From positions 1,357,902 through 1,389,901 of the forward strand of contig OZ242365.1 of assembly GCA_965208905.1 (NCBI GenBank): 32,000 nt of DNA, given 5' to 3'. Each line of letters starts with the position of its first letter. Position 1 is the stretch's first letter. This document shows, piece by piece, positions 4,157 through 23,044 of the stretch. Position numbers and translations under genes: made by a program. A model generated the notes under the pieces. The model worked only from the letters and a program-made list of their open reading frames with translations. It made no database searches and had not been told where the DNA came from. The stretch is from Nitrosopumilaceae archaeon. GTDB taxonomy: Archaea > Thermoproteota > Nitrososphaeria > Nitrososphaerales > Nitrosopumilaceae.

Positions 4157-4166
4157 ACCATTAGGC

Positions 4167-5594: not shown

Positions 5595-6407
5595 ATGTTA
5601 GAAATTCTTGAGTATGGTTTTATACAGAGGGCACTGATTTCTGGGATAGCCATTTCCGCTATATGTTCCATGGTGGGGTGCTTTTTGGTTATGCGTCGAT
5701 ATGCTCTCTTTGGGGATGGTATAGCCCATGTGGCATTTGGAGGTGTAGCTGTTGGACTGTTTATGGGAATAATCCCTTTCTGGTCGGCATTTGTTGTATC
5801 TATTCTGGGTAGTCTAGGGCTACAAAAGATGCAGAACTCTAAGGTTTCTGGAGAGGTGGCGGTTGCGGTCACTTTGGTCTCTGGCCTGTCGGTGGGTGTC
5901 ATACTAACTAGTATAGCTGGTGGCTTTACTTTAGACCTCTTTAGCTTTTTGTTTGGTAGTATTATACTGGTGAGTACCAATGACATGATTACAATACTAT
6001 CCATTAGTGGTGTGGTGGCTTTGGTAATAATTCTACTGTACAGAAGACTGTTATTCATTACATTTAATGCGGAATTGGCACGTGTATCTGGCATTCGGGT
6101 AACGCTTTTGAACTATCTGTTTGCAGTATTGGCGGCGATTACTGTTGTGGTTGCAATGAGACTTACTGGCATATTACTAATAACTGCCCTAATCGTTCTA
6201 CCCACGTTATCTGCCTCTAAATTTAATCGTGGATTCAAGGGTACAATGATAATATCTGCGGCGATATCATCCTCATCGGTGATTAGTGGAATATTCATCT
6301 CTTATCTGTTGGACTGGGCCCCCTCAGGTACTATAGTGGCGCTTTTAGTACTGTCTATGGTAGGAGTATACACTTCATATATGATAATGGGGCGCCTCTT
6401 CCGCTAA
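5595..6407 (+). CDS. metal ABC transporter permease (ABC-3 / ZnuB-like)
   Basis: 270-aa polytopic membrane protein with an MLEILEYGFIQRALI start and the overall pattern of the ABC-3 family. It lies directly downstream of the ATPase. Confidence 0.85.
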   Translation: MLEILEYGFIQRALISGIAISAICSMVGCFLVMRRYALFGDGIAHVAFGGVAVGLFMGIIPFWSAFVVSILGSLGLQKMQNSKVSGEVAVAVTLVSGLSVGVILTSIAGGFTLDLFSFLFGSIILVSTNDMITILSISGVVALVIILLYRRLLFITFNAELARVSGIRVTLLNYLFAVLAAITVVVAMRLTGILLITALIVLPTLSASKFNRGFKGTMIISAAISSSSVISGIFISYLLDWAPSGTIVALLVLSMVGVYTSYMIMGRLFR

Positions 6408-7180: not shown

Positions 7181-7380
7181 CTATTACCTCCTCGTCTATT
7201 AAATATTTGAGATTCATGAACTTTAAACTACTAATATCTGATTCATAAAACACCCATAAGTTACCTACAAACATTTTGCACTCATATTATAATATAGAAT
7301 ACTAATTAAATATGTACTGAATAGGGAATTTATTGTGTAACTTTTTAATTATAGCAATTTTATCTCCAAACATATCGTAT

Positions 7381-7458
7381 GGAAGTATTTTGGTAACACA
7401 AAACAGATGTAAGATTTAGCGCATCAGCCACAACCAATATTTTGCAAATATGGACAGG
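7381..7458. repeat. 78-nt direct repeat, copy 1 (left border of the GC-rich cassette)
   Basis: Manual alignment matches 10065-10142 at 74 of 78 positions (mismatches at 7385, 7427, 7432, 7456). Confidence 0.9.
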
Positions 7459-7830
7459 GCTATCGGGATGATCCGGACGATGCCAATCCTCAAGACCTCC
7501 CGGGCCAGACTGACATACTTTATCGAGAGGCACGCCGCCACTGGTACCAAGATCTACACCGACGACAACGCGGCCTGCCGCAACCTGCTCAACCACGGGC
7601 CGTCGACTACTCGACAGGCGAGTACGTCCGGGGATGGGTCCATATCAACGGGATGGAGTCGTTCTGGGCCTTGCTACGGCGCGGCTATGACGGGGCGTTT
7701 CACCACTTGTCCAAGAAGCGCCTGCACCGGTACGCCAACAAGTTCACGGGGAGACTGCACGCCAGGGTCCTAGATATGATGGTCAGGAGTGTGGTCGGGA
7801 AGAGGCTGACGTATAGTCAACTGGTACAAG
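7456..7830 (+). pseudogene. IS1595-family transposase, C-terminal fragment with a frameshift
   Basis: Frame 1 reads LTYFIERHAATGTKIYTDDNAACRNLLNH. Frame 3 continues AVDYSTGEYVRGWVHINGMESFWALLRRGYDGAFHHLSKKRLHRYANKFTGR, the conserved ISXO2-like/IS1595 C-terminus. The shift is near 7595 in a G run, and the N-terminal half is absent. Confidence 0.6.
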
Positions 7831-7866
7831 TCTACCTTTATAACCAATTGTGTGTTACACTTAAAA

Positions 7867-9570
7867 ATGAAAGTAAGTTTAATTATGCTCTTGCTGGCAG
7901 CGGTTGTTGCCACAGGAGCTACGATGACTAGCGCATACGCCCAACAGAACGGAGAGTCGATGGAAGCAATGGAGTCGATGGAAGCAATGGAAGCCCCAAT
8001 GCCCCCATCACCGTTTGCTCCCGGACAGTCAGTCTACTTCCCTCACGCTATGATCGGTCAGATAACCTCTAATCTTCCGCTGCCACCCTTCGACATGGCC
8101 AACGGCAACGCAGTCTTTGGGGTAATAATCCCAAACTTGGGTACTTGGATTCACCAAGAGGTATCCCCACACTTTGCGGACCCGTCGCTGTCGTTCAGAT
8201 ATGTTACGCTGATTCTTAATGCCGGCTACGACGCGACGGCGCCTTATCACGAGACGGCCGTCGGCGTATACTCACGTATTGACAACCGCCCGGCAAGTGA
8301 ATCTGCCGACAGCTACAACATCAACGTTGCATCCATCTATTCGGGATACCGGATGGGGATGGCGTTCGACCCAGACCGTGAACCGCAATGGCGGGCTATG
8401 ATGACTAACAATGGCTTGGACCCTGACGATGACACCGGATTGGACCTAGACTGCTCCCAGACGCACCAACTAGACTCGCCCATCGCCATAGGTAACTTGG
8501 CGAGCAAGTGTGTACTGGAGGCGCGGTGGTCTGATGGTTTCAACCACTTTGGGGATGAAACACCAGGACAACCATTCCGGGACACCACAGGCTATTCACC
8601 CGTCAACTCGGCCAACGAGCTGGTTGATCCGTCCAGGTGGCAACCTCTGATAAAACAACTCAGAGAGGGCACTTGGGTATCTCAACAGTTCACCACGCCA
8701 CAGTGGGCCGTGACCGAGCCATACTCGGACATCGATCCGAGAGAGTTCAGAGCACCACCCCCGTTCGCCAGTGACCACGCCTTTATGGACGACTACAAGG
8801 CACAGGCTGACGAGGTACTGGCTGCAGTAGCAGGCCTGACGGACGAACAGAAGATGCTGGTGGAATACTTCGACAACAAGGCACGTGAGACACTGTTCTT
8901 CCCGGCTGTAGAGGCGCTCCCAAACACAATGGACTTTTGGCAACTGGACTTTATGTTGCACATAGCCCAGTTTGATGCAGGAATTGTTGCTTGGCAAGAG
9001 AAGGCCAGATACGATGCCGTGCGCCCTGTTACCGCAATAAACTATCTGTATAGTGATGAGATCGTTCAGACCTATGGAATAGGCGGAGACGGTCCGAGAT
9101 CCATCGCAGGCAGCGAGTGGTACAGCTACGCTAACACTGGAGATCATCCAGAGTACCCATCCGCTACTGCATGCTTCTGCGCGGCGCAAGCTCAAGCTTG
9201 GAGGAATTATCTAGGTGGAGATGAAATCCCAGACGTTACCCTACCCAACGGGGAGGTTGTCGACGGATTCGTCGGAATATTGCCCGCAGGATCGTCCATA
9301 CACGAACCAGGAGTGACCCCTGCCAATGACGTAGTAGTAACCTATGACACTTGGACAGAATATGAGCAAGATTGCGCGGAAAGTAGGATATGGGCTGGTC
9401 TGCACTTTAGAGCGGCAGTAGAAGAGTCGCTCAATACGTGTAGCGATATAGGCAATGCGGCTTGGGACTACTTCTCAACACTGCTGGACGGGACAGCCCC
9501 GCTCAGACAGCCTGCTGAGAAACAAGACCAGGATCCGTTGCTGAACAGACCACACTTCACCGGACGATAA
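7867..9570 (+). CDS. secreted PAP2-superfamily / vanadium-haloperoxidase-like protein
   Basis: Signal peptide MKVSLIMLLLAAVVATGATMTSAYAQ. PAP2/VHPO motifs are KARYDAVRP (KX6RP), HPEYPSAT (a degenerate PSGH) and SRIWAGLHFRAAVE (SRX5HX3-like). ATG 7867 is preferred over GTG 7852. Confidence 0.7.
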   Translation: MKVSLIMLLLAAVVATGATMTSAYAQQNGESMEAMESMEAMEAPMPPSPFAPGQSVYFPHAMIGQITSNLPLPPFDMANGNAVFGVIIPNLGTWIHQEVSPHFADPSLSFRYVTLILNAGYDATAPYHETAVGVYSRIDNRPASESADSYNINVASIYSGYRMGMAFDPDREPQWRAMMTNNGLDPDDDTGLDLDCSQTHQLDSPIAIGNLASKCVLEARWSDGFNHFGDETPGQPFRDTTGYSPVNSANELVDPSRWQPLIKQLREGTWVSQQFTTPQWAVTEPYSDIDPREFRAPPPFASDHAFMDDYKAQADEVLAAVAGLTDEQKMLVEYFDNKARETLFFPAVEALPNTMDFWQLDFMLHIAQFDAGIVAWQEKARYDAVRPVTAINYLYSDEIVQTYGIGGDGPRSIAGSEWYSYANTGDHPEYPSATACFCAAQAQAWRNYLGGDEIPDVTLPNGEVVDGFVGILPAGSSIHEPGVTPANDVVVTYDTWTEYEQDCAESRIWAGLHFRAAVEESLNTCSDIGNAAWDYFSTLLDGTAPLRQPAEKQDQDPLLNRPHFTGR

Positions 9571-9578
9571 GACTAACA

Positions 9579-9602
9579 TTTCTTTTTTCTTTTTTTATTT
9601 AT
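9579..9602 (+). terminator. oligo-T tract (archaeal-type terminator candidate)
   Basis: tttcttttttctttttttatttat begins 9 nt after the stop at 9570. Confidence 0.35.
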
Positions 9603-9658
9603 TCATCTGGTATTGTATTTACAAGAGTCATGCCGCGCCCCATCCTTGCCGTCAACCA

Positions 9659-10060
9659 TTGAACCTCCATCCGGTTCGGGCTGGCGAATTCGTGCTGAGT
9701 ATGAGTGTGGCACGCGTTCATGCTGCCCCAGCCGAATATGGGTGGGGGATGTCCACTGAATTTGAGGCTGAGCTTCTTGATCGTGTAATCGAATTGATAA
9801 ACTCAAGACCGTACCACCCACAAATCAACTGCAAATTGGAGAGGTTCCACCGTAGTGTAGAAGAGGAGATGGAGCATTGGGATACTCTGTCCGAATACGT
9901 GACATCCTACAACGAGCGCAGACTTAGCGTCTCACTGGACATCAACAATCACCAGACATCGTTGAAGGTATTTTCAAACAAAAGATCTCTCGAAACAATA
10001 AAGCCGCCCCAACTGAATGGCGGAGGACGTAAACAATGGGGCGCAATGATTTCAATATAA
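9659..10060 (+). pseudogene. rve (IS481-like) integrase, C-terminal fragment
   Basis: SRPYHPQINCKLERFHRSVEEE...YVTSYNERRLSVSLD matches the HPQTNGKxERFHR...YNxxRxHxSL tail of DDE rve integrases. The upstream catalytic D residues are missing. Confidence 0.6.
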
Positions 10061-10064
10061 TACA

Positions 10065-10142
10065 GGAAATATTTTGGTAACACAAAACAGATGTAAGATT
10101 TAGCGCATCAACCACGACCAATATTTTGCAAATATGGACCGG
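10065..10142. repeat. 78-nt direct repeat, copy 2 (right border of the GC-rich cassette)
   Basis: Partner of 7381-7458. It starts 5 nt after the rve fragment stop and contains the last 14 codons and the stop of the 118-aa minus-strand ORF. Confidence 0.9.
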
Positions 10143-10456
10143 TCTCCTTGTTGTTTTATGACCACAGTACTGTCTTTGGATTTGAGATGTGCTTGGATAG
10201 TTTCAAGAATTGTACCCTCATCTTTTACCTTTGAGTTTTGCTTATGTAGATGAGTCACCAATTTTTTAATGAAATCCTCCTTAACACGTATAGTAAAAAA
10301 CCACCAACCCATAGCAAACTCTGCATCATCATCGAATCTATATGATACAGTATCGTGTACTATCATGCTTTGTAGGTGATCAAATATTTCTCTTAATATG
10401 AGTGCATCTGAATCTAGATTCCTTGTTGCTACACTGTATAACGGAATCCATGACAT
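10100..10456 (-). CDS. hypothetical protein
   Basis: 118-aa ORF with ATG start. No recognisable motif. Its 3' end lies inside repeat copy 2. Confidence 0.45.
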   Translation of the reverse strand: MSWIPLYSVATRNLDSDALILREIFDHLQSMIVHDTVSYRFDDDAEFAMGWWFFTIRVKEDFIKKLVTHLHKQNSKVKDEGTILETIQAHLKSKDSTVVIKQQGDRSIFAKYWSWLMR

Positions 10457-10502
10457 ACAACGCTATGCTTTCCTTTTATGTATAAAAGCACCTACTGTGC
10501 AT

Positions 10503-10552
10503 GCTTCTGGTAAGTTAACGTGAGATAGATCATCTTGGAAAGTGAGTGAGAT
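10503..10552. repeat. 50-nt inverted repeat, arm A (left border of the AT-rich island)
   Basis: gcttctggtaagttaacgtgagatagatcatcttggaaagtgagtgagat equals the reverse complement of 16894-16943 at 46 of 50 positions, including a 27-nt perfect run. Confidence 0.9.
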
Positions 10553-10695
10553 ACTTCGAATCTGTCAAAAAGGGTACATGAAACGGGACGGTTAAGAACT
10601 AAGTACCTCAACACACCTGTTAAGTGGTGGTACCTGAGGGGTTCTGGGATATATTAGGTACATAGAGTGTAGTGTAACAGAAGATCATGAAATCA

Positions 10696-11181
10696 CTAGC
10701 CAGACAACTTATAGTTGGTGTTTTCCTTTAACCATTGTCGGATAGTAGAATGAAGACCCCTCAACTCTGGGTCCCAAAGATACCTTACTGTTTCCTTATG
10801 TGCGCCTAACTCATCCAATACCATTCCAAAATACGACATCACATGCTGTTTTGTGAGTACACTATCATAGTATAAAGAGGTGACTGTAGTTAGATGATTG
10901 AGGTATTTTACACGTATGAACTTTAAGTTGTCATCTGTCTCAAATGTTTCTTGGTGGGATATCATAGAACACGCTGTGTACAAGTCCTTATCATTATACA
11001 GCTTCTCCCACAATTTTAGTATGAGATGTGCTGAATCAATCCAGACTCGTTGGTTCAACATATCTTTTTGTTGTTGAACCTGATGTCGGTTTGAGCGCCA
11101 TATCGCAAATGCAACCACCGCACTACCGCAGAATGTAAGTGCCGCAATGATTACGGAGATTGCCAATCCGAGATCAAACAT
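10696..11181 (-). CDS. hypothetical protein with an N-terminal transmembrane anchor
   Basis: 161-aa ORF. One N-terminal TM helix (LAISVIIAALTFCGSAVVAFAIW) is followed by a helical soluble part. No family was recognised. Confidence 0.55.
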   Translation of the reverse strand: MFDLGLAISVIIAALTFCGSAVVAFAIWRSNRHQVQQQKDMLNQRVWIDSAHLILKLWEKLYNDKDLYTACSMISHQETFETDDNLKFIRVKYLNHLTTVTSLYYDSVLTKQHVMSYFGMVLDELGAHKETVRYLWDPELRGLHSTIRQWLKENTNYKLSG

Positions 11182-11565
11182 CTTTGATCAAATCGGTGCC
11201 TAACCATATAAGCATGATGCAGAATGTTTTTTACCCCTAATCGCCATATTATAGTGTGGAACACTTGGAACCCATTATACTTGATTTCTACCTTCATAGA
11301 CAGCACGTAGATTTATCTGAACCCAAACCAGGAGGCAGGCCGGAAAAAGCCATCATGGCAAAACGTACAAAACATATCTACAAGCCTGTTGTTGCCATAC
11401 CTAGTGTTCGCACATAGGTTCTGTAACATCTTGTTTTATCCGGAAATCATGTCGCGCTATATTCTGGTCGTCAGTCATGAATATCATCCTCCATCCATGT
11501 AGGGTTTTGACTTCTTGTTTCAACAGTTGCCTTCTTTTTTTGAAAGAAATTAGTTGATATGTACA

Positions 11566-11580
11566 TAAAAAATAAAAAAG
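11566..11580 (-). terminator. oligo-T tract after the transposase stop
   Basis: The minus strand reads cttttttatttttta immediately after the TAA at 11581-11583. Confidence 0.3.
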
Positions 11581-12840
11581 TTAGGATGTTGACTTTGCAG
11601 CTGCTTGAATCATGGTAAGCCACTTGTTGTCACCTTCAACGGTGATACCTGCAGCCTCGGCGGGGGTTATCTGGTTTGGGAGTCCAAGGTGTGGGCGTAC
11701 AAAGTTGTGATACAATCGCAATCCAGAGATTATGCTAGAGTCATCCTTCTTCAAACCACGGCACACTTTCTCACGGTGTCGTAGTGTTGCCCCGTTGAAG
11801 GATTCCATTTGGTTGTTATGATGTATGCCATCAAAGGCAACATCATGTATATGCTCGGTCTCTTTGTGCAGAAAGTTCTTTGCTTTATACTGTTGTTTCC
11901 AAGCATGGTGAAAGTTGGCTGCCTTGTCACTAATTAATGTGGTTGGAACTTTACCCGTTACCTTCTTGGCCTGTTTAAACATCGGTGCTACGTCGTCATT
12001 GCCTTTGTGTTCGGCTACCATCTTGGCTATCCAAAACCTAGTCTCTGAATCAAGCATTGCAAATAGATATTTGCGGTTACCCTTGATTTTCAGGTATAAT
12101 TCATCTGTACGCCACTGTTCACCGACTTGTGGTTTAATCTTGTCAACAAAGGTCTCCATAAGTTCACCATACTGTTTACCCCAATTTTGTATGGTAACAT
12201 GAGTAGTCTTAAGTCCAGTCATTTCAAGGCTGCGGGCAACCTTCCTACTAGATAAGCCGCTAAACAGTAAATCTACAGCCTGTGTAATCTGTTCAGGTGT
12301 GGCTCTCTTGCGAGTGAACCCGACATTATGAGTGAACCGCTTAAGGCAGTCTATACACTTGAACTGCTGAACTGGACCTTTCTTGAACTTTCGTATACCA
12401 CATTTCACTACATTGGTTGACTCACAAAATTTACACTTGGTAAGGTCAACCTGCTTGATAATGATTTTAGGTACTTCCTGTTGTACCGCTTTTCTTATTC
12501 GGCGGCTTATCTCGACTGCATGAATATGCTTGCATATTACACCACGATACATATGATCCGGGCATGAACAAATCCAGCCATGCTCGGTGGATAATACCTC
12601 GTATACTTTATCGGATGATTGGGAACGTACCGTGTATGTCAGGTCGTCTATTCTCGTGATTTGGTTAGATTTACTGACTATTTGAGCGCCCCGTGTTATG
12701 CGGTCATTGGTGGTCTGTCCAGTCACATTGCCAACTGATATATTGTATAATGGTGTAATATGCTCAGAGTGCAATTCGCTCGTCATTGGGGTTGCTGCCC
12801 CTCTGGCTTTTGTTTTCATCATCGCATTTGTTATTGTCAT
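11581..12840 (-). CDS. DDE transposase, IS6-like (IS240-type) with N-terminal SWIM and zinc-ribbon fingers
   Basis: 419-aa ORF. SWIM finger is CSCPDHMYRGVICKHIHA and Zn ribbon is CKFCES...CIDC. Candidate DDE triad residues sit in WRTDELYLKIKG, LISDKAANF and NNQMESFNG. The tail is YHNFVRPHLGLPNQITPAEAAGI. Element ends were not identified. Confidence 0.8.
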   Translation of the reverse strand: MTITNAMMKTKARGAATPMTSELHSEHITPLYNISVGNVTGQTTNDRITRGAQIVSKSNQITRIDDLTYTVRSQSSDKVYEVLSTEHGWICSCPDHMYRGVICKHIHAVEISRRIRKAVQQEVPKIIIKQVDLTKCKFCESTNVVKCGIRKFKKGPVQQFKCIDCLKRFTHNVGFTRKRATPEQITQAVDLLFSGLSSRKVARSLEMTGLKTTHVTIQNWGKQYGELMETFVDKIKPQVGEQWRTDELYLKIKGNRKYLFAMLDSETRFWIAKMVAEHKGNDDVAPMFKQAKKVTGKVPTTLISDKAANFHHAWKQQYKAKNFLHKETEHIHDVAFDGIHHNNQMESFNGATLRHREKVCRGLKKDDSSIISGLRLYHNFVRPHLGLPNQITPAEAAGITVEGDNKWLTMIQAAAKSTS

Positions 12841-12915
12841 TAACTACCCTATGGTATAACGATAATATATAGTTATCCCATAGAAGGGTTAAAATAACTG
12901 ACATGTGGGTTAAGT

Positions 12916-13146
12916 GTGTTGGGAATTACTAAAAAAACAATCAAGGGTCTGGAATACATCTATTTTGCCTATTATGACGAGACATCAAAATCTAAACAAT
13001 ACAAATCGTGTGGGTCTGCTACCAATAAGGAATCTATGATCAAAGCTATATCACTTGAGCGCGAGTATCTGAAGCGACGTAAGAATAAACTAAACGAGGA
13101 AATTACACAGATACAGGAGAAAATAGATGGACTTGCAAAGTTATAA
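12916..13146 (+). CDS. small hypothetical protein: Arm/AP2-like N-terminal hairpin plus coiled coil
   Basis: 76-aa ORF with GTG start. KKTIKGLEYIYFAYYDETSKSKQYKSCGSATNKES resembles the Arm-type DNA-binding domain at the N-terminus of tyrosine integrases, and the C-terminal half is heptad-like. Its stop codon abuts the first 19-nt repeat. Confidence 0.35.
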   Translation: MLGITKKTIKGLEYIYFAYYDETSKSKQYKSCGSATNKESMIKAISLEREYLKRRKNKLNEEITQIQEKIDGLAKL

Positions 13147-13259
13147 TACGAGGCCTACGGCCAAATACGAGGCCTACGGCCAAATACGAGGCCTACGGCC
13201 AAATACGAGGCCTACGGCCAAATACGAGGCCTACGGCCAAATACGAGGCCTACGGCCAA
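13146..13259. repeat. perfect tandem repeat, 6 x 19 nt (atacgaggcctacggccaa)
   Basis: Six head-to-tail identical units were counted directly (13146, 13165, 13184, 13203, 13222, 13241). Each unit holds AGGCCT and a GGCC-tac-GGCC mini-palindrome. Confidence 0.97.
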
Positions 13260-13330
13260 ATTATACAAGCGGCGCCATACTATACAATACATACAACGCC
13301 TTATCAATTCATCGGAGGCTGTATATGTGA

Positions 13331-14779
13331 ATGTCTGGCATCAAGAACCGGACAATATTCACAGGCGACAACCTAGAGATATTACGTGGCTTTCCAGATG
13401 AATTTGTTGATTTAATATATCTAGACCCGCCATTTAACTCAAAACATAACTATGCTGCCCCCATAGGTTCTAAGGCGGCTGGGGCTGCCTTCAAGGATAC
13501 GTGGACTTTACAAGATGTGGATGTATCATGGTGGGGGGAGATTGCCGAGACAAACACTGCCCTGTATAAGGCACTAGAGGCAGCCAAACATACAGCAGGC
13601 AAGAGTGCCATGTCCTATCTAATCTACATGGCAATACGCATACTAGAGATGTATCGTATACTAAAGAGTACAGGTTCTATATACTTGCATTGCGACCCAA
13701 CCATGTCTCATTATTTGAAGATGGTGTTGGATTCGATTTTTGGAGTAGTGAATTTTAAGAACGAGATTGTATGGAAACGATCAAAGGGACATCCACTATC
13801 CATTAAAAAATTTGAAGCAGTAGCAGACTATATCTTAGTTTATCAAAAATCAGGTAACAGTGTTTTCTACCCAGTAAAATTACCAATGGATGAACAAACA
13901 ATAAAAAGAGATTATAGATATAAAGATGAACATGGGCGTTACAGTACATGTTCATTAACAGGTGGCAAGGCTGGCGGTGAATCTGCGTACTTACCATTTA
14001 ACGGTGCATTACCATCTTCAGGACGTGGATGGGCGCCACCTACTAGGCAAAAGATACCACAATGGGCAGCAAAAATATTACCTTCAGATTATGAAAAGAT
14101 GAATCAACTTGAAAAATGCCACGCTTTAGATGCTATTGGAATGATAGTATGGTCTGCTAATAACGTGCCTAGATACAAACACTATCTAAAAGACGTTCCA
14201 TACAAACTTGCTAATAGTGTATGGTATGACATAAAATTACTAACCTCCCATTCCAAAGAAAAACTCGGCTACCCCACCCAAAAACCCATAGCCTTGTTAG
14301 AACGTATAATACAAGCCTCTACAAACGAGGGAGATATTGTACTAGATCCGTTTTGTGGATGTGCGACCGCCTGTTCAGCAGCTGAACGGCTAAACCGAGA
14401 GTGGATTGGTATAGACATATCACCAAAGGCGGTTGAGTTGATGAACGCCAGAATGGTCAGCGAGGCAGGGATTGAAAAGTGGACAAAGGGCGCAGGAATG
14501 GTAATTCAAAGGACGGACATACCAATACGCAAAGGCAATAGATCAAAGAACATAAAACATCAACTATTCGGTATGCAGGAAGGCAGATGTAATCTATGCA
14601 GACATGAAATTGAATTTCGACATATGGAAGTCGACCATGTAATACCAAGGGCCAAGGGTGGACCTGATGATGATGGCAACCTCCAACTATTATGCGGTCA
14701 TTGCAATCGTGTTAAAGGTAAGGGGACAATGGCAGAAGCAAAGGTGAGACTGATCAAGCTGGGAATAGTAGCCCGTTAG
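13331..14779 (+). CDS. beta-class N6A/N4C DNA methyltransferase fused to a C-terminal HNH endonuclease domain
   Basis: Motif IV IYLDPPFN lies near the N-terminus. GYPTQKPIALLERII and motif I VLDPFCGCATA...IGIDISP come late, giving the beta order. The C-terminus CNLCRHEIEFRHMEVDHVIPRAKGGPDDDGNLQLLCGHCNRVKG is a canonical CxxC...DH...N...CxxC HNH domain. Confidence 0.85.
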   Translation: MSGIKNRTIFTGDNLEILRGFPDEFVDLIYLDPPFNSKHNYAAPIGSKAAGAAFKDTWTLQDVDVSWWGEIAETNTALYKALEAAKHTAGKSAMSYLIYMAIRILEMYRILKSTGSIYLHCDPTMSHYLKMVLDSIFGVVNFKNEIVWKRSKGHPLSIKKFEAVADYILVYQKSGNSVFYPVKLPMDEQTIKRDYRYKDEHGRYSTCSLTGGKAGGESAYLPFNGALPSSGRGWAPPTRQKIPQWAAKILPSDYEKMNQLEKCHALDAIGMIVWSANNVPRYKHYLKDVPYKLANSVWYDIKLLTSHSKEKLGYPTQKPIALLERIIQASTNEGDIVLDPFCGCATACSAAERLNREWIGIDISPKAVELMNARMVSEAGIEKWTKGAGMVIQRTDIPIRKGNRSKNIKHQLFGMQEGRCNLCRHEIEFRHMEVDHVIPRAKGGPDDDGNLQLLCGHCNRVKGKGTMAEAKVRLIKLGIVAR

Positions 14780-15080
14780 GTCATCGATTTTACACCATCA
14801 CACAGATCACTTTACAAAACCACCATCACACAAATTTGACAGCATATATCACTACACACGTTCTTGACAGTTCCCAAAACGAATTAGGGAATCTATACAA
14901 GGTGCATCTTGGTGATTTGATGTGTAGTGATGTATTGGTGATCTGAACAAGCATGTAAAGGTGACTTCTTACAGAATTTTGACTACTTACTGAATATAAT
15001 TAGTGTGGATGGTTGCGTGTAACTCCCCGACCTATATTCTGACGTAGTGCATGTCCTAAATGGCCTACCCATTTTTTCAT

Positions 15081-15482
15081 TTACCGTATATCTACGGTAG
15101 TTGTAGAATCTGGATTTGAAGAGAAAAGCCAGCCACGGGTTTGAGCTACTACTCTGAGATTCTTAGATATTCTCTTAATTTGACTTTTTGTAGAATTCCC
15201 AAACTCAATGAATGCATGTTCCTCGTATGGTATATGATCATCCACAACATCCAGATTCATGCGTGTACATTCGTTCACGGTCACAGCCATAACCCCGCTT
15301 GATTCTTTGTGTAATGTAGATGTATAATGTTGCCATGCTTTTTTAGCTGTTATTTGATCTCCATCGTAAACTGATAGACGGCACGGATCTCTTGATGAAG
15401 GACGAAATGCTCTAGATCCAGCACGACCTTCTCTAACGAAATTAGGATGAATCTGCCGGTATAGTTGGGTCTCACCATTCAT
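15081..15482 (-). CDS. hypothetical 133-aa protein, downstream member of a two-gene operon (candidate toxin/effector)
   Basis: ATG overlaps the upstream stop as ATGA. Motifs in order are LYRQIHP, RAFRPSSRD, RLSVYDG and PYEEHAFIEF. This aromatic-Arg ... Ser ... acidic pattern loosely recalls R-S-E ADP-ribosyltransferases. The family is unassigned. Confidence 0.6.
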   Translation of the reverse strand: MNGETQLYRQIHPNFVREGRAGSRAFRPSSRDPCRLSVYDGDQITAKKAWQHYTSTLHKESSGVMAVTVNECTRMNLDVVDDHIPYEEHAFIEFGNSTKSQIKRISKNLRVVAQTRGWLFSSNPDSTTTVDIR

Positions 15483-16606
15483 TTCAACATCTCTTTCATG
15501 GAGCGTATTTGGTTAGCCACCCATTCCCAACTATCCTGCTTGTTAAGATCTAATACCGTCTCATCACTGGAATTAGTACTAACATCATACCAACTCCATT
15601 CGCCACTATGCTTTACAAGATCTACCTCTAGGCTAATTTCCCGTTTACCTATACTCCATTCTAAATCAAGATCACCCTTGGGAGTGGGGTATATGTGAGG
15701 AAGCACAACATTGTTGGGATAATATTGCTTGAAGATGTCAGATAGCCAATCCAAGCCATCATGACTAGGAGCAACACCTTCACCATTTAACCAACCAGTT
15801 TTCATGGTACGCAGCTCATCTAACTGTACCAATACATCCAGTTTATCCAGTAAATGGATGTGAGTTATTGATTCAATAGAGATACGTCCATCTCGACTGT
15901 GCTGAACAGTACCCTGTATCTGTACTCTTGCATTGTCCTTATATCTGTCGAATGCTTTCATAATGATGTCATAGTAAGGGTCCGGCAGATGGCCTGTAAC
16001 TAACGGACCATAGACCTGTTGTAGACTAAATGTCATGTTTTTTTGATCTATCTTATGCACGGAGCCACGTAGAACTACCTCACTCGCACGCCTAATTGTG
16101 GATGTAAGAGATAGTACCTTATCGCGTATTTTTTTGGTTAGCCTAGCCGGAGTTTGATGCGTGGAGGCAGTCAACTCTAATGTCTCATCATCACGAAGAT
16201 TATGTCCTATATGCTTAAGGTGTTCTAACATGTCATACGATGGAACCTCGTCTGGTGGTAGTTGTTCATCCTGTGCCAGATGCTTAATAGTCTCTACTAT
16301 ATACTCTTTCGCACTCTCAAAATATTTTTGGTGTAGTATCTGCCCATCCAATGTCTGTTGTGTTGTGGTGAGTTTGAATACTGGTACGGTGCTTCCACTT
16401 TCAATACTAACTAATTCCAAATCAACTTTACTAAAGTCAGGTGAAGAACGTCTACGATTTGGATTATCTTTTAAATACTGCCATCGCGCTACTTCTATCA
16501 CCATCTCTTGCAGGGCATGCAAGTTGGGAAGAACGTCTTTCGGTATCCCCCCGTTCTTAAATCGCGCTCCATCCAACCGAGGTCGTAAAAAATCTACGCT
16601 TGGCAT
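15479..16606 (-). CDS. hypothetical 375-aa protein, upstream member of the two-gene operon
   Basis: Long ORF with ATG start and no nuclease or NTPase motif seen by eye. The C-terminal roughly 100 aa (GWLNGEGVAP...LPHIYPTPKGDLDLEWSIGKREISLEVDL) look like an independent beta-rich domain. Confidence 0.6.
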   Translation of the reverse strand: MPSVDFLRPRLDGARFKNGGIPKDVLPNLHALQEMVIEVARWQYLKDNPNRRRSSPDFSKVDLELVSIESGSTVPVFKLTTTQQTLDGQILHQKYFESAKEYIVETIKHLAQDEQLPPDEVPSYDMLEHLKHIGHNLRDDETLELTASTHQTPARLTKKIRDKVLSLTSTIRRASEVVLRGSVHKIDQKNMTFSLQQVYGPLVTGHLPDPYYDIIMKAFDRYKDNARVQIQGTVQHSRDGRISIESITHIHLLDKLDVLVQLDELRTMKTGWLNGEGVAPSHDGLDWLSDIFKQYYPNNVVLPHIYPTPKGDLDLEWSIGKREISLEVDLVKHSGEWSWYDVSTNSSDETVLDLNKQDSWEWVANQIRSMKEMLK

Positions 16607-16893
16607 AAGATCACCAAAACAGGACAGACTTGGTGCGTACTACACAAAAACTTAAACTCGGCTTTCATCTACCCCTCAACACTATATCTACTATAATAAT
16701 CCATACCCGCTTAATCCAATTCAGATTTACCCTTCAATCCTGATGCTGAAAATACAAGAAGAGAACAAAAGATGTGACAGGCCTTGCAGGAAGAGTTCTG
16801 CTACAAAGCAGGAGATTATGTATGTAATAGTTGAAGTTAATTTTTCAAATTTGTATTTTTTAAACATTGTATTTCTCAGATCACTATACTATC

Positions 16894-16943
16894 ATCTCAC
16901 CCACTTTCCAACATATTCTATCTCACGTTAACTTACCAGAAGC
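16894..16943. repeat. 50-nt inverted repeat, arm B (right border of the AT-rich island)
   Basis: Reverse complement of 10503-10552 (46 of 50). It ends 1-2 nt before the first hairpin of the IS110 leader. Confidence 0.9.
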
Positions 16944-16944
16944 T

Positions 16945-17127
16945 ATGTGTCGTTGTTATATCGGCGACACATGTACTCTTCCTGTTGGACCTGAGAGTCG
17001 ACAGGAACTGGCCCCTCCGAGGGCGCTTACCAGAATGGCTCAAGGTACGTGAAAAGCTTCAGCCCCTCCGAGGGCGGATGGAAGTTTACCATGGTCAGGT
17101 CCGACTATCCACTAAAAAGGAGGTGAA
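16945..17127 (+). ncRNA. candidate IS110 bridge-RNA-like structured leader
   Basis: 183 nt between IR arm B and the transposase ATG. Pairings seen: 8-bp hairpin 16945-16952/16965-16972; 7-bp hairpin 16979-16985/17001-17007; long-range 8-nt pairing 16987-16994/17095-17102. The 15-nt gcccctccgagggcg occurs twice (17011, 17062). No expression or covariance evidence. Confidence 0.25.
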
Positions 17128-18155
17128 ATGAAAAAAAGAATTGCATTACATCGGAATTGACGTACACATGAGAAGATGTGTGGCCACCACCAAGGGAAGA
17201 TCCAAAAAGGTGTTAGACCAGTTTGAGTTCAACAACGACCTGCACGGGATACGTGCGTTCGCCAGCAGAATGCTGCGCCGCGAGTACACGCCGGCGGTAG
17301 CCGTCTTTGAGTCCACCGGTAACTATTGGAAGGTACTCCACAACGAGCTAGAGGAGACAGACATCAAGCCGGTCCTGGTCAACCCGTACGACCTCAAGAT
17401 CATCACTCAGGCAAAGTTTAAGGACGACCGGGTTGACTCTGAGAGGTTGTCCGACCTAGCCAGGGGAGACCTGTATAGACCATCCTACGTTCCCACCCAG
17501 AAAGAGATGGACCTGCGCGAGCTTACCCGCACCCGCCTGGATTTGCGGTACGACGCCACCGAACACAAGAACCACGTGCACGCTATCCTGACCAAATATC
17601 CGCTCAAGAGGCCCCCGAATATCTACACGGCCAAGGGTATGGAATGGCTGCAGACCGCACCCGTCCGGAACTACGACCGAATGGCGCTTGACTCCCACCT
17701 GTATATCCTTAATGCTACCGAGAGACGCATATCCCTGCTGGAAAAGGAGATCTGCAGGATAGCCATCTTTGACCCGCGGGCCCGTCTTATGATGACCATG
17801 CCCGGGGTGGGACCGGTCACCGCGGTGACCGTCCTGGCGGAGATAGGGGACACAGGCCGGTTCGCCAGGCCTGAGCAGCTGACCGCCTACGCGGGTCTGG
17901 TGCCGTCCCACAGGAACAGCGCAGACACAGTCCGGACCGGCGGCATCACCAAAGTCCGGATCCCGCTGGCTCAGGAACGCGGCCGTAGAGGCGGCGTTCG
18001 TGGCTGTCCGGCACGACCCATACCGCAAGGGTAGATACGAGCGACTGGCCGCCAGGAGAGGCCCGCAGAAGGCTCGGGTCGCCGCGGCTCGGGAGATGCT
18101 AGAGGACATGTGGTACATGCTGACCAGGAACGAACCATATAACCATCCCAACTAA
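17128..18155 (+). pseudogene. IS110-family (DEDD) transposase/recombinase, interrupted by two single-A frameshifts
   Basis: YIGIDVH N-terminal motif and the MPGVGPVTAVTVLAEIGDTGRF...LTAYAGLVPSHRNS IS116/IS110/IS902 domain. After 17955 the protein continues in the +1 frame (KSGSRWLRNAAVEAAFVAVRHDPY...NHPN*, stop at 18153-18155). ATG 17128 has a perfect aaggaggtga SD but is out of frame unless the A7 run is read as A6. Confidence 0.8.
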
Positions 18156-19103
18156 ACCATGACCAACCGCAAGATGACCAACGCCAGGCGCGTGGCCAAC
18201 CGGGATATTGCCTAGGGTATACCGGTTCGGGGGCGTTTCGCCGCCCCCTGCCCAGCGAGGGGCGGCTCAACGCCCTTTGTACCTCCCCGCCGTCTGGTTG
18301 CTCAAAAATAATGCAGTAGAAAGCCAACCATCTGCAACTTCACGGGGTTAACACCTGCCCTTTTCCCCGGGGACGCGTGGGGGATTCTGCGCACCATAAT
18401 TTCCTATACGCCCGCAATCCACTTGGAACATACACTCAAACCACTTTGGATGGGGTTTACATACTGTATAATGCCGTATTGGTGCCCCCATCTTGCAAAA
18501 AGATACTCTAATACTTAAAAATCAGACAGACCCATACCATTTGGACCGGATCAAATGTATTACCAACACATAACATCAATGGGTTTTAGCAACCCAAACA
18601 CATGGAAGTTCCCTGTGCATATAGCGTGTGATGCAAAAATTTGCTTCGGAAGGCTCAAGCCAAGGCTCACAGGGGTTCATAACCGACGATACAGCAAGAT
18701 ATGCTATATAATCCAAGCAGCCCCACAGACTTTATGGAGGGTTAGAACAAAAACCAGATGTAAAGTAGGCCCGCTGAAGTATATTCGCCGGCGCGTTGGA
18801 ATCGGCGCAGTCGCCCACATGATATGCATGAACACAATTCGTTATTTTGACTCTTCCTGCCTATACACGTAGCATGTCTGGCTGGCCGTTCAACGACTCA
18901 GTTATACACAAAGCGCTGTACATGCCATATATCGCCGATACGGCGTGCTTGCGAATCATACGGAATCCGATGTAGTACATGGCATTGTATCACTCTTAAA
19001 AATGTGGAGTTTTGGTTTTCGATATGTCCGGTTAAGTATGTTATTTCCGCAATCTTGCACGCGCAGATTATATACGGTATGCGTGTTGGAGTATGTACAT
19101 AAC

Positions 19104-19481
19104 ATGGTGACCTCCACAACTCAACAGGGGGAAAGACATCTGGAGTATACTAAAAACCAAACCATCATGGTGTCCGGTTGTACAGGATTTATTGGATCCC
19201 ATCTTACAACAAGACTCTCTTCAATGGGATACTCTGTGCGCGGCTTGACAAGAAAGGACATGAATGATCATGACAATATCACATATGTGAAAGCAGATGT
19301 CTTTGATCTTCCAAGTCTGACTAGTGTCATGAAAGGGGTGGATGTGGCATATTACCTACTTCATTCCATGGAGGGTGGCAAAGGTGACTGGCAAGACTTT
19401 GCCAAGAGGGAGAAGGAACAAGCTATGAACTTTCTTCAGGCCGCAAATACATCAAATGTCAAGAGAATCATATATCTTGGA
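19104..19481 (+). pseudogene. NAD(P)-binding atypical SDR (NmrA/YbjT-like) gene, 5' part, interrupted by the IS3 element
   Basis: Rossmann motif TIMVSGCTGFIGSHL. The frame reads ...KRIIYLG and then runs into the IS end. Confidence 0.7.
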
Positions 19482-19538
19482 TGGAGTGGACCCCATAGAA
19501 TGTTACTGTTTTCGGCATGATTTTACATACATCTTCCA

Positions 19539-20573
19539 TCATTTATTTGTCATCTCCAACTGTTCGGCAAATTCTACTGGTGTCATGTATCCGATAGAGG
19601 AATGAATCCTCTCGGTGTTGTAATCTACAAAGGCCTTTGCAATGATCGTCTCTGCCTCCTGATAGTTCGCAAACTCGTGCGGCCAGATGTATTCCTTTTT
19701 CAGCGTCTTGTGAAATGATTCGACATGTCCGTTCTGCTCCGGCGTATTCTTGTAGATGAATTCATGTTTGCCGATGCCAAGGGCCTGAACCGCATGTCTA
19801 AAGTCGCGGCTCGTATACTGGTTGCCGTTGTCCGTACGCAATCGTAATTGTGAGCAGTCAGGTTTCTCTGCGGCAACCGCGTTGGTGATTGAGGTGATTG
19901 CAATGTCTCGTGTGGCATTGACATCAAACGCGTAGGCGATCCACTTGCGCGTAAAGCAGTCAATTACGTTGAAGCAGTAGCACCAGCCGTCTATACCGCA
20001 CCAGATGTATGTGATGTCCGTCTCCCACAACTGGTGTGGGGCTTTGGGTTTGAAGAGCTTTTGACCCGCTCGAATGATGTCGTTTTTGGTATTTTGTGGC
20101 TGGATGTAGCCCATTTTGCGATATATCCGCTGTATCTGCTTGCGGTTCACCACAATTCCCGTATCGCGCGTTATCTGGGCCGCCATGCGCCGTGTGCCGT
20201 ACGTGGGCCTCTTTCTGCTCGTATCTAGCACAGTGCTCAATATATCCGGATTCAATCCCATGTCTCTGGGCTTGGGTTTGTAGTACCATTGGCGCCTGGA
20301 TACGCCCGCATACCCTAGCGACTTGCGCAGGCTCAAATGTTGTTCCTGCATGATTTTTACCGCGTTCAATCGTTGCTTGCCTCCAAGGTTTTTTTTAAAG
20401 CGTCGTTTGCGATTGTCAGATCCCCTATGATTCGCTTTAGGTCGCCGTTCTCCTTTTTGATGGCCTTTATCGGATCCTTCTTTCCGTGATGGGTCAGTCC
20501 GGACTTGCCTGCGTCCATGAACTTTTGCCGCCAGGCTTGAAACGTTTGGGGATGAACGTTGTGCTTGCGGCAC
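19539..20573 (-). CDS. IS3-family transposase OrfB (DDE/rve domain), expressed as OrfAB by -1 frameshift
   Basis: Candidate DDE triad residues sit in WETDITYIW, RTDNGNQYTS and HVESFHKTLKKE. The -1 frame after TTA AAA AAA A (plus-strand T8 at 20389-20396) reads NLGGKQRLNAVKIM, which matches this ORF. Confidence 0.85.
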   Translation of the reverse strand: MPQAQRSSPNVSSLAAKVHGRRQVRTDPSRKEGSDKGHQKGERRPKANHRGSDNRKRRFKKNLGGKQRLNAVKIMQEQHLSLRKSLGYAGVSRRQWYYKPKPRDMGLNPDILSTVLDTSRKRPTYGTRRMAAQITRDTGIVVNRKQIQRIYRKMGYIQPQNTKNDIIRAGQKLFKPKAPHQLWETDITYIWCGIDGWCYCFNVIDCFTRKWIAYAFDVNATRDIAITSITNAVAAEKPDCSQLRLRTDNGNQYTSRDFRHAVQALGIGKHEFIYKNTPEQNGHVESFHKTLKKEYIWPHEFANYQEAETIIAKAFVDYNTERIHSSIGYMTPVEFAEQLEMTNK

Positions 20574-20656
20574 AGCTCGGCCGTGCCAATATTGGTCTTG
20601 ATTGATTCCAAAACGATCTGGATCTTTTGGTCTGGAGTAAACTTTGTTCTTACCAT
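20366..20656 (-). CDS. IS3-family transposase OrfA (HTH plus leucine zipper)
   Basis: 96 aa. FTPDQKIQIVLES...GTAELCRKHNVHPQTFQAWRQKF is the IS3 OrfA HTH. The slippery A8 lies 9 codons before its stop. Confidence 0.85.
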   Translation of the reverse strand: MVRTKFTPDQKIQIVLESIKTNIGTAELCRKHNVHPQTFQAWRQKFMDAGKSGLTHHGKKDPIKAIKKENGDLKRIIGDLTIANDALKKTLEASND

Positions 20657-20728: not shown

Positions 20729-21728
20729 TGGAGGGCTGGTCAGTAGTGATGGCTCTGAACTCTCACCTCACATGGAGAGTAGAATAAAGGTAGGTCAAAT
20801 TCTTGCATCGGGAAGTATTCCTGTTACAGAACTGCGTGCGTCCATAATAATCGGTGCTCGCGGAGGATCCTTTATGATGTTGAGGTACTTGGTTGAGAGG
20901 CTTAGGTTTATGGTCTGTCCATCGTGGGTGGGCTCATATACCCAACCAATTGCGGTTGATGATGTGGTGGCGTACCTTGTGGGATGCCTTGAGAAGAAGG
21001 AGTCAACTGGTCGAATTTTTGAGATTGGTGGTCCGGACAAGATGACATATGAGCAGCTTATGCGCACGTATTCTACATATTTAGATCGTACATTATTTAT
21101 ACTAAATGTACCATTTCTGACTACTCGCCTGTCATCCTTGTGGGTTGATCTGATAACTCCCGTCAAGGCGGCGCTTGCAAGGCCTTTGATAGACAGTCTA
21201 GTACACGACTCGGTTGTCACAGATTCATCGATTGACAAGATAATGCCGATGAAACTAAAGACGGTCACCGAGTCCATTGACATTGCCATTAAAGAAGCAG
21301 ACTCCAACTCTGATAGTGCTGTTATTAGACGCAATGCGAAGACCGGGTTTGGACTAAACCAAAAGATTGTACTATTTTCGCTGATTGCCTTGGGGATATG
21401 CGGTACGTCATATTACTGGTTGGATGATCGGCCTGTTGTGTATGAACCACTTTGGCTGTCTGTCTCTTCTGTATGGTATGTCATTATTGCCTTTGCAGTA
21501 ATTATGGTTCGCAACGAGACGAGATTAGGTTATATGGTTGCAGGGGTCCTGGCCTGGGTGACACTGTCGTTTTGGCTGTTTGACAACTTTTATGTTGTGT
21601 TTGACGCATCGATCATCTCTACTGAACCAAACTTTATGATGACTATCCGTAATTTTGTGGGAGTTGTTGTTGCCGCCACGGCAATTATTGCTTCCCATAA
21701 CCTATTCCACAAGAGCGTTTATACGTGA
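20729..21728 (+). pseudogene. atypical SDR gene, 3' part (catalytic C-terminal half plus a multi-TM tail)
   Basis: In frame from 20730 it reads GGLVSSDGSELSPHMESRIKVGQIL...TELRASIIIGARGGSFMMLRYLVERL. Removing the IS and one TGGA restores ...IIYLGGLV.... The last roughly 120 aa form hydrophobic helices. Confidence 0.7.
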
Positions 21729-21982: not shown

Positions 21983-23044
21983 CTACACTGTATAAAAAGT
22001 GAATAATATGTTGAACGCGGCATTGACATCCGCGTGCTGTACAACGCCGCACTCACGGCACCTGAACCGGCTGCCGTCGCGCCACGTGTTTGTGCTGCCG
22101 TATACACAGCACTGCTGTGATGTGTATTTCGGGTCAATCTCGGCATACTCGGTGTTGTGTTGCAAAGCCTGTTGTGCCAACAAAGCCCGCGCCTCACCGC
22201 ACTTGAACTGCCGCATTAGACGGTTCTTGTTCTTCTGGCCTGGGCCCTTGGTCGTCATTGTACGGAGGTTCATGCCCTCCATGATTATTTTGTCGCATTG
22301 CGCAAATAGTTTTTTGGCAAACTTGCGCAGCTTGTCTGTTTGCCGGTTTCCCATCTTGCGGTATATGCTTTGCAGCTGCGCGTGCAGTGTCCACCACTTG
22401 TGGGAGTGAAGTTTGCAATGAGACATCTTCTTTTGAATACGCGCGATGTTCCGTATAGTGTCCTTCTCGCGCAGTGTAGTCATCTCTATTCTGCCGTCCG
22501 ATTTTGCCACCACAAGCGTTTGTTTGCCGCCCATGTCAATTCCCGCATGTACGCCGGTACATACACGGTCCGGAACGTGTTCACGTATAGTAACATGCAG
22601 CTCAAACTGTCTTTCCCTGTCCGCATTATTCGTCACATCCACAATTTTGTACGACTGCAATGTGTCGGGCAGGCGTCCTTTCTGGAGTTTGAAAGGTTTG
22701 TCGCACTTTGGGCAATACACTGTATTACCCTTGGACTTTTTGCCAAGCGGCATATTACTATACAGTGGGTAAACCTTCTTGCCATACTTTACGTGAGTGC
22801 ACCCCCCCATCTTGTGGCCTTCCTTGATGGCTCCGTGAACCCAAGACTGTGGTATGCCCTGGCATATGGTGGCTATTTTGTTGGTGTCAAACACCGACAG
22901 CCCGGCCCGGCGCGCCTTTATCCCCGCATTGAGCCACACATGACTCTCCGAGTACATGGAGTCAAAATATCTGGTCAGCCTGGCAGATGTCTTTAAACGG
23001 TATTGGACAGTCTTTATGACGTACTTTCCACCATTATACTTCAT
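21983..23044 (-). CDS. tnpB: TnpB-like RNA-guided endonuclease (IS200/IS605-IS1341 group OrfB), compact at 353 aa
   Basis: RuvC motifs GIDMGG (D), IIMEGMN (E) and HADVNAAFNI (D). A zinc finger CCVYGS...FRCRECG lies between them. The N-terminus VQYRLKTSARLTRYFDSM is typical of OrfB. Confidence 0.85.
   Translation of the reverse strand: MKYNGGKYVIKTVQYRLKTSARLTRYFDSMYSESHVWLNAGIKARRAGLSVFDTNKIATICQGIPQSWVHGAIKEGHKMGGCTHVKYGKKVYPLYSNMPLGKKSKGNTVYCPKCDKPFKLQKGRLPDTLQSYKIVDVTNNADRERQFELHVTIREHVPDRVCTGVHAGIDMGGKQTLVVAKSDGRIEMTTLREKDTIRNIARIQKKMSHCKLHSHKWWTLHAQLQSIYRKMGNRQTDKLRKFAKKLFAQCDKIIMEGMNLRTMTTKGPGQKNKNRLMRQFKCGEARALLAQQALQHNTEYAEIDPKYTSQQCCVYGSTNTWRDGSRFRCRECGVVQHADVNAAFNILFTFYTV

Follow-up and report, generated by a model that had tools for sequence, protein, structure and literature searches.

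A 6.4-kb segment between 50-nt inverted repeats in a Nitrosopumilaceae archaeon is very probably a cargo transposon distantly related to IS6

The window analysed here is a 32,000-nt stretch from the genome of a Nitrosopumilaceae archaeon (GenBank assembly GCA_965208905.1, contig OZ242365.1, positions 1,357,902 to 1,389,901 of the forward strand), and coordinates refer to it unless a locus label stands with them. Its central feature is the segment 10503-16943, which is enclosed by two inverted copies of a 50-nt sequence, arm A and arm B, and which a preliminary description made from the letters alone had called an AT-rich candidate mobile defence island. The reading frames listed in that description, i.e. 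those for a 161-aa protein, a transposase, a 76-aa protein, a methyltransferase-HNH fusion and a 375-aa/133-aa pair, are all present, as is an array of 19-nt repeats (6.2 copies). In the terms of the interpretation developed below, the features are:

10495..10502, no strand: target-site duplication (TSD), left copy, CTGTGCAT, read from the sequence
10503..10552, plus strand: left terminal inverted repeat (TIR), arm A, with the sub-repeats CTGGTAA-N7-GTGAGAT and TTGGAAA-N4-GTGAGAT; family TIR profile E 6.6e-8
10558..10571, plus strand: GAATCTGTCAAAAA, tentatively either a sub-terminal repeat, the third one, or what is left of an inner TIR abutting arm A, from the alignment and from tandem TIRs in the related loci L004 and L049
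10696..11181, minus strand: 161-aa open reading frame (ORF) with a hydrophobic N-terminus, in a variable slot downstream of the transposase
11581..12840, minus strand: 419-aa DDE transposase with a SWIM-type CxC..CxH motif, an IS1-type zinc ribbon and an IS6/IS240-type catalytic domain
12916..13146, plus strand: 76-aa methyltransferase partner; no Pfam, PADLOC or NCBIfam match
13145..13261, no strand: 19-nt unit AATACGAGGCCTACGGCCA, repeated identically 6.2 times in tandem, with the 76-aa gene on one side and the methyltransferase gene on the other
13331..14779, plus strand: 482-aa N6_N4 DNA methyltransferase with a C-terminal HNH nuclease; Pfam N6_N4_Mtase E 2e-44, HNH E 5e-12; PADLOC MTase_II
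14824..14874, minus strand: internal third TIR of the GTCAA/GTGTGAT type, pointing leftwards; profile E 5.8e-6; orthologous to L004:5984-6034
15081..15482, minus strand: PDC-M32B, 133 aa; PADLOC E 5.3e-47, full length
15479..16606, minus strand: PDC-M32A, 375 aa; PADLOC E 2.3e-111, full length
16894..16943, minus strand: right TIR, arm B; family TIR profile E 2.9e-7
16944..18612, plus strand: IS110-family insertion sequence (IS), 1669 bp, a later insertion outside the transposon; Pfam PF01548 DEDD_Tnp_IS110 and PF02371 Transposase_20
18613..18620, no strand: right copy of the TSD, CTGTGCAT, directly after the right end of the IS110 element

The arms are 50 nt long and 92% complementary, with 6341 nt between them, and they are the sole long, high-identity inverted repeat that the repeat finder detected in the window. 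The 46 matching positions out of 50 and the 27 consecutive identities described before were recovered by the repeat finder and by a count of the 27-mer core, which occurs exactly twice in the window, once on each strand, and in 0 of 100 shuffles. Similarity between the arms breaks off at both outer edges, as had been described and as comparison of the two arms confirms, and, inward, past 50 nt; each arm contains GTGAGAT exactly twice. No tRNA and no Rfam family was found in the window, and the arms are thus no att sites with a tRNA gene or other known RNA gene as their source. The segment has a GC content of 0.412 and is slightly more AT-rich than the background (0.446 in the window outside the IS-rich stretch 7328-20656). 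Its description as an AT-rich island is correct in direction and overstated in emphasis, as the visible contrast arises because the neighbours, i.e. the IS110 element (0.558) and a cassette at 7462-10064 (0.527), are GC-rich.

The transposase had been called IS6-like from its translation, and Pfam places its catalytic domain in the IS6/IS240 type (PF13610 DDE_Tnp_IS240, E 2.3e-14, 54.1 bits, gathering score 27). In the NCBIfam scan the IS1-type zinc ribbon lies N-terminal to this domain. Overall 1525 homologues were found, many of them in Nitrosopumilaceae genomes, and the source genome itself, a contig of 2,214,775 bp, contains a 100% match and several paralogues with 68-80% identity. The names given to these homologues, together with TFIIB and arginyl-tRNA synthetase, assign the window to a Nitrosopumilaceae (thaumarchaeal) genome.

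The TIRs were compared with those of relatives, i.e. 41 loci that were retrieved via transposase alignment and that bear labels beginning with L. The arms of the window align column by column with the repeats of L004 in MAFFT, revealing a common plan that is present twice in each repeat and consists of GG(A/T)(A/T)CTG(G/T)NAA, a short spacer and a heptamer. A profile built from eight MAFFT-aligned sequences (the window arms plus the L004 repeats) and iterated on the 41 loci finds two-part TIRs of ~50 nt beside transposase homologues at many independent Nitrosopumilaceae loci, and many of the relatives' TIRs contain a third sub-terminal repeat. In L001-L003, which belong to one genome, the right edge of a thrice-repeated element (9325) corresponds exactly to position 1 of the profile. 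Moreover, a look outside the arms of other copies, as the preliminary description had proposed, reveals perfect 8-bp TSDs around 13 TIR pairs in relatives, the elements being 2.8-11.4 kb long (the outer pair of L004, and L008, L010, L011, L013, L014, L015, L016, L019, L024, L026, L027 and L042). L008 and L010 represent the same 10.26-kb element at two sites in one genome, with a separate TSD at each. The heptamers are lineage-dependent (GTGAGAT, GTGTGAT, GTGACCT, GGGACAT, GTGAGTC, GGGAGCT and others), and within one element the heptamer is identical in both sub-repeats: the 8-mer of the first sub-repeat is matched at 7 or more of 8 positions in its own second sub-repeat in 94% of the TIRs, compared with 8% when the sub-repeats of other elements are used. 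The TIR design, the 8-bp TSDs and the ends with a GG-tip and a CTG-box, as in IS6, thus identify the arms as transposon ends.

The window has a TSD of its own. The 8 nt preceding arm A (10495-10502) are identical to the 8 nt that follow the IS110 end (18613-18620), once 16944-18612 is removed, and an exact 8-mer match over the few hundred possible IS110 end positions is expected by chance with a probability of ~0.01. As CTGTGCAT is found on both sides after removal of IS110, the whole 6,441-bp segment appears to have been inserted as one unit, with the IS110 element arriving later. Judged from its sequence features, the segment 10503-16943 is very probably a 6,441-bp unit transposon of this archaeon, with an enlarged transposase that is distantly related to IS6. 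Of the origins that had been considered for the arms, this corresponds to the TIRs of a large cargo element, which is favoured by the TIR design of the family, by the TSDs of the relatives and by the TSD of the window.

By analogy with DDE transposases, and with IS6 in particular, the transposase would bind the two tandem sub-repeats of each 50-nt TIR and may read the lineage-specific heptamer, GTGAGAT in the window, as an address. It would then cut at the G-tip and join the ends to the target with an 8-bp stagger, leaving CTGTGCAT on both sides, in a reaction that could either be replicative and proceed via a cointegrate, as in IS26, or follow a cut-and-paste scheme. The IS6 family is characterized by such cointegrates and by pseudo-compound transposons in which the copies are directly repeated. 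All DNA between the ends, i.e. the genes for the methyltransferase-HNH protein and its 76-aa partner, the 161-aa gene and the PDC-M32 operon, would travel together. The IS110-family element landed after this insertion, exactly on the outer tip that arm B presents. The site before insertion is expected to read ...AAAGCACCTA-CTGTGCAT-ATAGCGTGTG..., or, in wider form, ...GTATAAAAGCACCTA-CTGTGCAT-ATAGCGTGTGATGC....

Several points weigh against the transposon interpretation. The TSD of the window is seen only with the IS110 element taken out, and the right end of this element is uncertain by 1-3 nt, a shift of 1 nt leaving a flanking repeat of 7 bp. In the proposed search for further copies of the 50-mer, the 21-mer core of the arms is without a match in public genome-contig and metagenome-contig collections, a 20-mer common to a window arm and L004 has one match, in the GC-rich, unrelated contig L054, which is about the chance expectation, and one copy of the 50-mer was found in the relative L004, whose orthologous element has only this one. 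The transposase covers the NCBIfam profile NF033587 transpos_IS6 completely (1-202 of 202), with a score of 99.2 bits that lies below the cutoff of 125. Finally, in view of the internal TIR, arm A and arm B may differ in origin.

This internal TIR, whose GTGTGAT sub-repeats are located at 14825 and 14797, deserves closer consideration. As it is orthologous to L004:5984-6034, the restriction-modification (R-M) genes and the transposase constitute a core with its own, older right end; the PDC-M32 operon sits between the internal TIR and arm B. Methyltransferase-HNH gene, 19-nt array, 76-aa gene and transposase gene form the same module in Cenarchaeum sp. SB0669_bin_11 (L004/L005). It is bounded in L004 by 51-nt inverted repeats (5984-6034 and 9911-9961), the single copy of the 50-mer follows immediately outside the module (9962-10011), and a further inverted pair is present at 4161-4211 and 10343-10393. 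GAATCTGTCAAAAA, just inside arm A, is similar to a TIR tip of L004, that of the partner TIR adjoining the 50-mer. The internal TIR shows that the element is nested or modular. The inner module (~10553-14874, comprising the genes for the 161-aa protein, the transposase, the 76-aa protein and the methyltransferase-HNH protein) might be the sole autonomous transposon, inserted beside arm A of an older, non-autonomous PDC-M32 element. Both the orthology of the internal TIR and the pair of the same type that bounds the L004 module argue for such a history, and so does the finding that the tip of one TIR abuts the inner edge of another in L004 (between 9961 and 9962), in L049 (between 630 and 631) and possibly in the window (10558). 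However, the inner left TIR of the window is down to ~14 nt, so that the module cannot move on its own two ends, and no TSD flanks the module, whereas the outer arms have one. We regard this explanation as possible, but rather unlikely, and the history that it describes would be compatible with the outer unit having transposed last.

The junctions themselves follow a recurrent pattern, the tip of the one TIR lying against the inner edge (~nt 48-50) of a TIR of the same orientation (in the window perhaps at 10552-10571). At these two or three independent loci no target duplication surrounds the inner element. In L004 two elements also meet tip to tip, with a common 8-mer, TTTTGGAA (10394-10401). 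These arrangements suggest either insertion directed to element ends or an exchange of ends.

The arms could also be two independent small dispersed repeats, or solo TIRs of different elements, with no unit between them. The solo copy of the 50-mer in L004, the density of insertion sequences in the region and the preference of IS110 relatives for such tips are in line with this possibility, but it does not account for the inverted orientation and 92% identity of the arms, for the 8-mer that borders both of them after removal of IS110, or for the same arrangement with TSDs in 13 relatives, and we consider it improbable. The related proposal that mobile elements target a small repeat holds in a secondary sense, as the IS110 lineage does insert precisely at such TIR tips. 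A further proposal was that the 50-nt inverted repeats are substrates on which the 6.4-kb segment inverts, considered here as a phase-variation switch, and repeats of this length could indeed allow occasional homologous inversion. However, none of the ORFs of the segment has a serine or tyrosine invertase or recombinase domain in the Pfam and NCBIfam scans, the repeats have the design of transposon ends and come with a TSD, and no gene or promoter extends across an arm such that it would be switched by inversion; nothing was found in support of this proposal, which is highly improbable.

The cargo of the transposon includes an R-M-type gene. The fusion of methyltransferase and HNH nuclease noted before is confirmed by Pfam, both domains being contained in one 482-aa chain, in which the HNH domain may restrict unmethylated DNA; the orthologue in L004 is 71% identical. 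In relatives an R-M pair almost always accompanies the transposase. Pfam scans of TSD-bounded and other transposase-bearing relatives show that R-M genes of unrelated types adjoin the transposase in L004, L011, L013, L014, L018, L021, L023, L024, L026, L027, L038, L042 and L047, with the following assignments:

L011, L047: N6_N4 methyltransferase and MvaI/BcnI nuclease
L024: MT-A70 and MunI
L026: Dam-type methyltransferase and HinP1I
L014, L042: EcoRI-type methylase and GmrSD_N-HNH protein
L027: GmrSD_N-HNH protein, the sole cargo gene scanned there
L018: N6_N4 methyltransferase and PD-(D/E)XK nuclease
L013, L021, L023: N6_N4 methyltransferase and an unassigned ORF
L004, L038, window: methyltransferase-HNH fusion

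R-M systems are known for post-segregational killing. As cargo they plausibly serve both defence and the retention of the element. Besides a matrixin-like peptidase (L019) and nested insertion sequences, members of the family carry genes for surface proteins with Ig-like, HYR and laminin-G domains (L008/L010, L023). These surface proteins, encoded within L008:32-10292, L010:28-10292 and L023:3-10159, are very large and belong to a class that would be expected in host-associated microbes. Transposons of this family may thus also spread symbiosis-related traits. The 161-aa ORF of the window has no Pfam, PADLOC or NCBIfam match and no tblastn match in any related locus.

The 76-aa protein belongs to the methyltransferase module and not to the transposition machinery, as its homologues are encoded directly upstream of N6_N4 methyltransferases in L004, L011, L023, L028 and L047, and, in L025, in the same reading frame as the methyltransferase. 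The adjacent 19-nt unit recurs identically in the orthologous L004/L005 (L004:7518-7591; L005:7553-7696) and is absent from other relatives; both of these assemblies break inside the array and show stretches of N within or next to it. AATACGAGGCCTACGGCCA is identical in all copies and across two genomes, the flanking genes being just 73-90% identical, and the unit contains GGCC and AGGCCT sites. The array might be an operator or a cluster of target sites for the methyltransferase. The earlier reading of an Arm-like ORF with iterons is therefore abandoned, since the ORF encodes a methyltransferase partner that is fused to its methyltransferase in L025, and the array is confined to one lineage. 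Likewise, an integrated plasmid- or virus-like element with the 19-nt repeats as replication iterons bound by the 76-aa protein, for which identical tandem 19-mers beside a small basic protein might speak, is hardly credible in view of the company that the 76-aa protein keeps, of an array found in one lineage only and of Pfam, PADLOC and NCBIfam scans without any replication initiator, integrase, capsid or conjugation gene.

The operon for the 375-aa and the 133-aa protein, said to be unassignable in the preliminary description, is recognized by PADLOC as PDC-M32A and PDC-M32B, so that the recommended PADLOC-type scan was rewarded with these two proteins and with MTase_II. As in the PADLOC PDC-M32 system, both proteins match over their full length, and their genes are adjacent, in the expected order and with a 4-nt overlap. 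The PDC systems of PADLOC are predictions from defence-island context; the operon of the window is a candidate defence system by profile match. Together with the methyltransferase-HNH fusion and the R-M pairs in relatives it agrees with the label of a mobile defence island. Four other loci also combine PDC-M32 with this transposase family, in three contexts, i.e. following a TIR (L040), convergent with the transposase at a distance of 45 nt and with no TIR between them (L051 and L052, from two sponge metagenomes, where the operon has 83-88% nucleotide identity to that of the window), and just inside a TIR together with a type IIG enzyme (L053). Searches of PDB sequences with both proteins gave no match. 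The AlphaFold2 model of PDC-M32B (predicted local distance difference test, pLDDT, 92.6) has no significant Foldseek match in PDB or BFVD; the best PDB fold matches have E ~0.3, among them the type III effector AvrPphF ORF2. An ADP-ribosyltransferase-like effector, a guess from the sequence, was dropped in the absence of a significant fold match. The single-sequence model of PDC-M32A (pLDDT 40) allows no fold assignment, and a search of the open-access literature found no functional study of PDC-M32 and one mention of it, among prophage genes. Upstream of PDC-M32A, a 60-nt stretch (16621-16680) is 83% identical to L004:9305-9363, which lies upstream of an unrelated 146-aa gene, and both stretches have the same orientation relative to the downstream gene. 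This stretch may be a portable promoter or leader.

The IS110 element had been described as starting 1-2 nt outside arm B; it begins at 16944, directly after the last base of this arm. With a DEDD transposase, no terminal inverted repeats and a sequence-specific target it agrees with the IS110 family. Its transposase is frameshifted near 17952, and its ends were set by a 92%-identical copy in L049, an unrelated metagenome contig. The left junction, ...CAGAAGC followed by TATGTGTCG, is common to both, and the right ends agree up to ...ACACATGGAAGT(T/A)CC save one base (...GGAAGT(T/A)CC, ending at window position 18612) and then diverge. Overall, three copies of one IS110 lineage, in the window (16944-18612), in L049 (679-2296, 92%) and in L050 (2263 onwards, 75%), are all located exactly after ...CAGAAGC, which is where a GCTTCTG... 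TIR of the IS6-like type has its outer tip. As the flank in L049 is a different TIR, the insertions are independent and hit one kind of target. In the 5' non-coding end of the element (17011-17076) two copies of GCCCCTCCGAGGGCG flank CTTACCAGAA TGGCTCAAGG..., and the first 10 nt of the flanked segment (17026-17035) are identical to the target at the TIR tip (16930-16939), with a chance probability of ~0.01. L050 keeps the scaffold and has ATACACAGAT at the guide position, and the L049 copy is without the segment. The stretch 17011-17076 looks like a target guide of the bridge-RNA type, with ...CTTACCAGAAGC^CTG as putative target. IS4321 and IS5075, which belong to the IS110/IS1111 family, insert in the TIRs of Tn21-family transposons. 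The IS110 element of the window and its relatives in L049 and L050 likewise occupy a fixed position of a TIR tip; unlike IS4321 and IS5075, however, they insert at the outermost base and not inside the repeat, and the host element is archaeal and IS6-like.

The surroundings of the transposon contain further mobile elements. The stretch 7328-7720 is 95% identical to L011:10320-10714, i.e. DNA that starts at the tip of an IS6-like TIR, and 81 nt of it recur at 10065-10145 (94%). These two bracket IS1595-type transposase fragments, a GC-rich vanadium chloroperoxidase-like gene (7852-9570) and an rve_3 fragment, and the whole may be another element that lands at TIR tips or a composite cassette. 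On the other side, an IS3-type element with two ORFs (rve, HTH_21; 19539-20656) appears to split a gene, whose N-terminal part (18945-19520) is NmrA/epimerase-like and whose part after the IS (20772-21728) is without Pfam match. It is followed by a TnpB gene (OrfB_IS605/Cas12f-like; 21983-23044), around which weak TIR-like matches (21732, 23101) were lost in the iterated profile and were dropped. The window is a hotspot for mobile elements between 7.3 and 23 kb.

The hallmarks of IS6 are 8-bp repeats and the end consensus GGTTCTGTTGCAAA (PMC7986276, PMC6807381), and the members in ISfinder have a length of 0.7-1.8 kb and TIRs of 14-20 bp, a single member carrying a passenger gene (PMC7986276). 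With IS6, i.e. IS6/IS26 and the archaeal clades, the family described here has in common the IS240/IS6-type DDE catalytic domain, the 8-bp TSD (in the window and 13 relatives) and ends that begin with GG, here GG or GC, and contain CTG at positions 5-7, as in GGTTCTGTTGCAAA. Tips and CTG-box are kept in the family of the window (GGAACTGTCAA, GCTTCTGGTAA), although the repeat is ~50 nt long and two-part instead of 14-20 bp. Unlike IS6 with its single gene, the elements are 2.8-11.4 kb long, that of the window having 6,441 bp and six genes; the TIRs comprise two or three sub-repeats whose heptamer is specific to the lineage; the transposase, of ~400 aa, contains SWIM and IS1-type zinc modules in addition; and cargo is the rule. 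The main survey of thaumarchaeal mobile elements gives one or two genes as typical of IS-like transposons, and a term search of this survey yielded no cargo transposon of the kind seen in the window (PMC6563490). Within the open-access literature, the family is apparently an undescribed group of archaeal transposons distantly related to IS6. Going further, one may picture an undescribed, diversified IS6-related group with R-M genes as near-obligate partner, the heptamer as address, defence modules added at the ends and an RNA-guided IS110 lineage on the tips; for this picture as a whole we put the chance somewhat short of even.

R-M units flanked by inverted repeats of 26-65 bp and 8-bp duplications, but devoid of a transposase, have been described before (Furuta, Abe and Kobayashi 2010; PMC2853133). 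The family shares with them the location of R-M genes inside long inverted repeats and the 8-bp target duplication. However, those units are bacterial (Xanthomonas oryzae, Neisseria gonorrhoeae), transposase-less and isolated, whereas the family here is autonomous, archaeal and diversified. It has long been asked how R-M and other defence genes pass from one genome to another, and here an autonomous vehicle becomes visible. In Nitrosopumilaceae, the sponge-associated ones among them, it transports R-M systems of at least six unrelated kinds and can also transport a candidate defence operon or large surface-protein genes. It would widen the known span of the IS6 lineage, which would then reach from insertion sequences of 1 kb to cargo transposons of ~11 kb at most, its TIRs would provide a readable specificity code that is testable in vitro, and the IS110 element at the TIR tip would offer a natural archaeal case for target choice in the IS110 family. 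Finally, the turnover of defence genes in ammonia-oxidising archaea would gain a mechanism.

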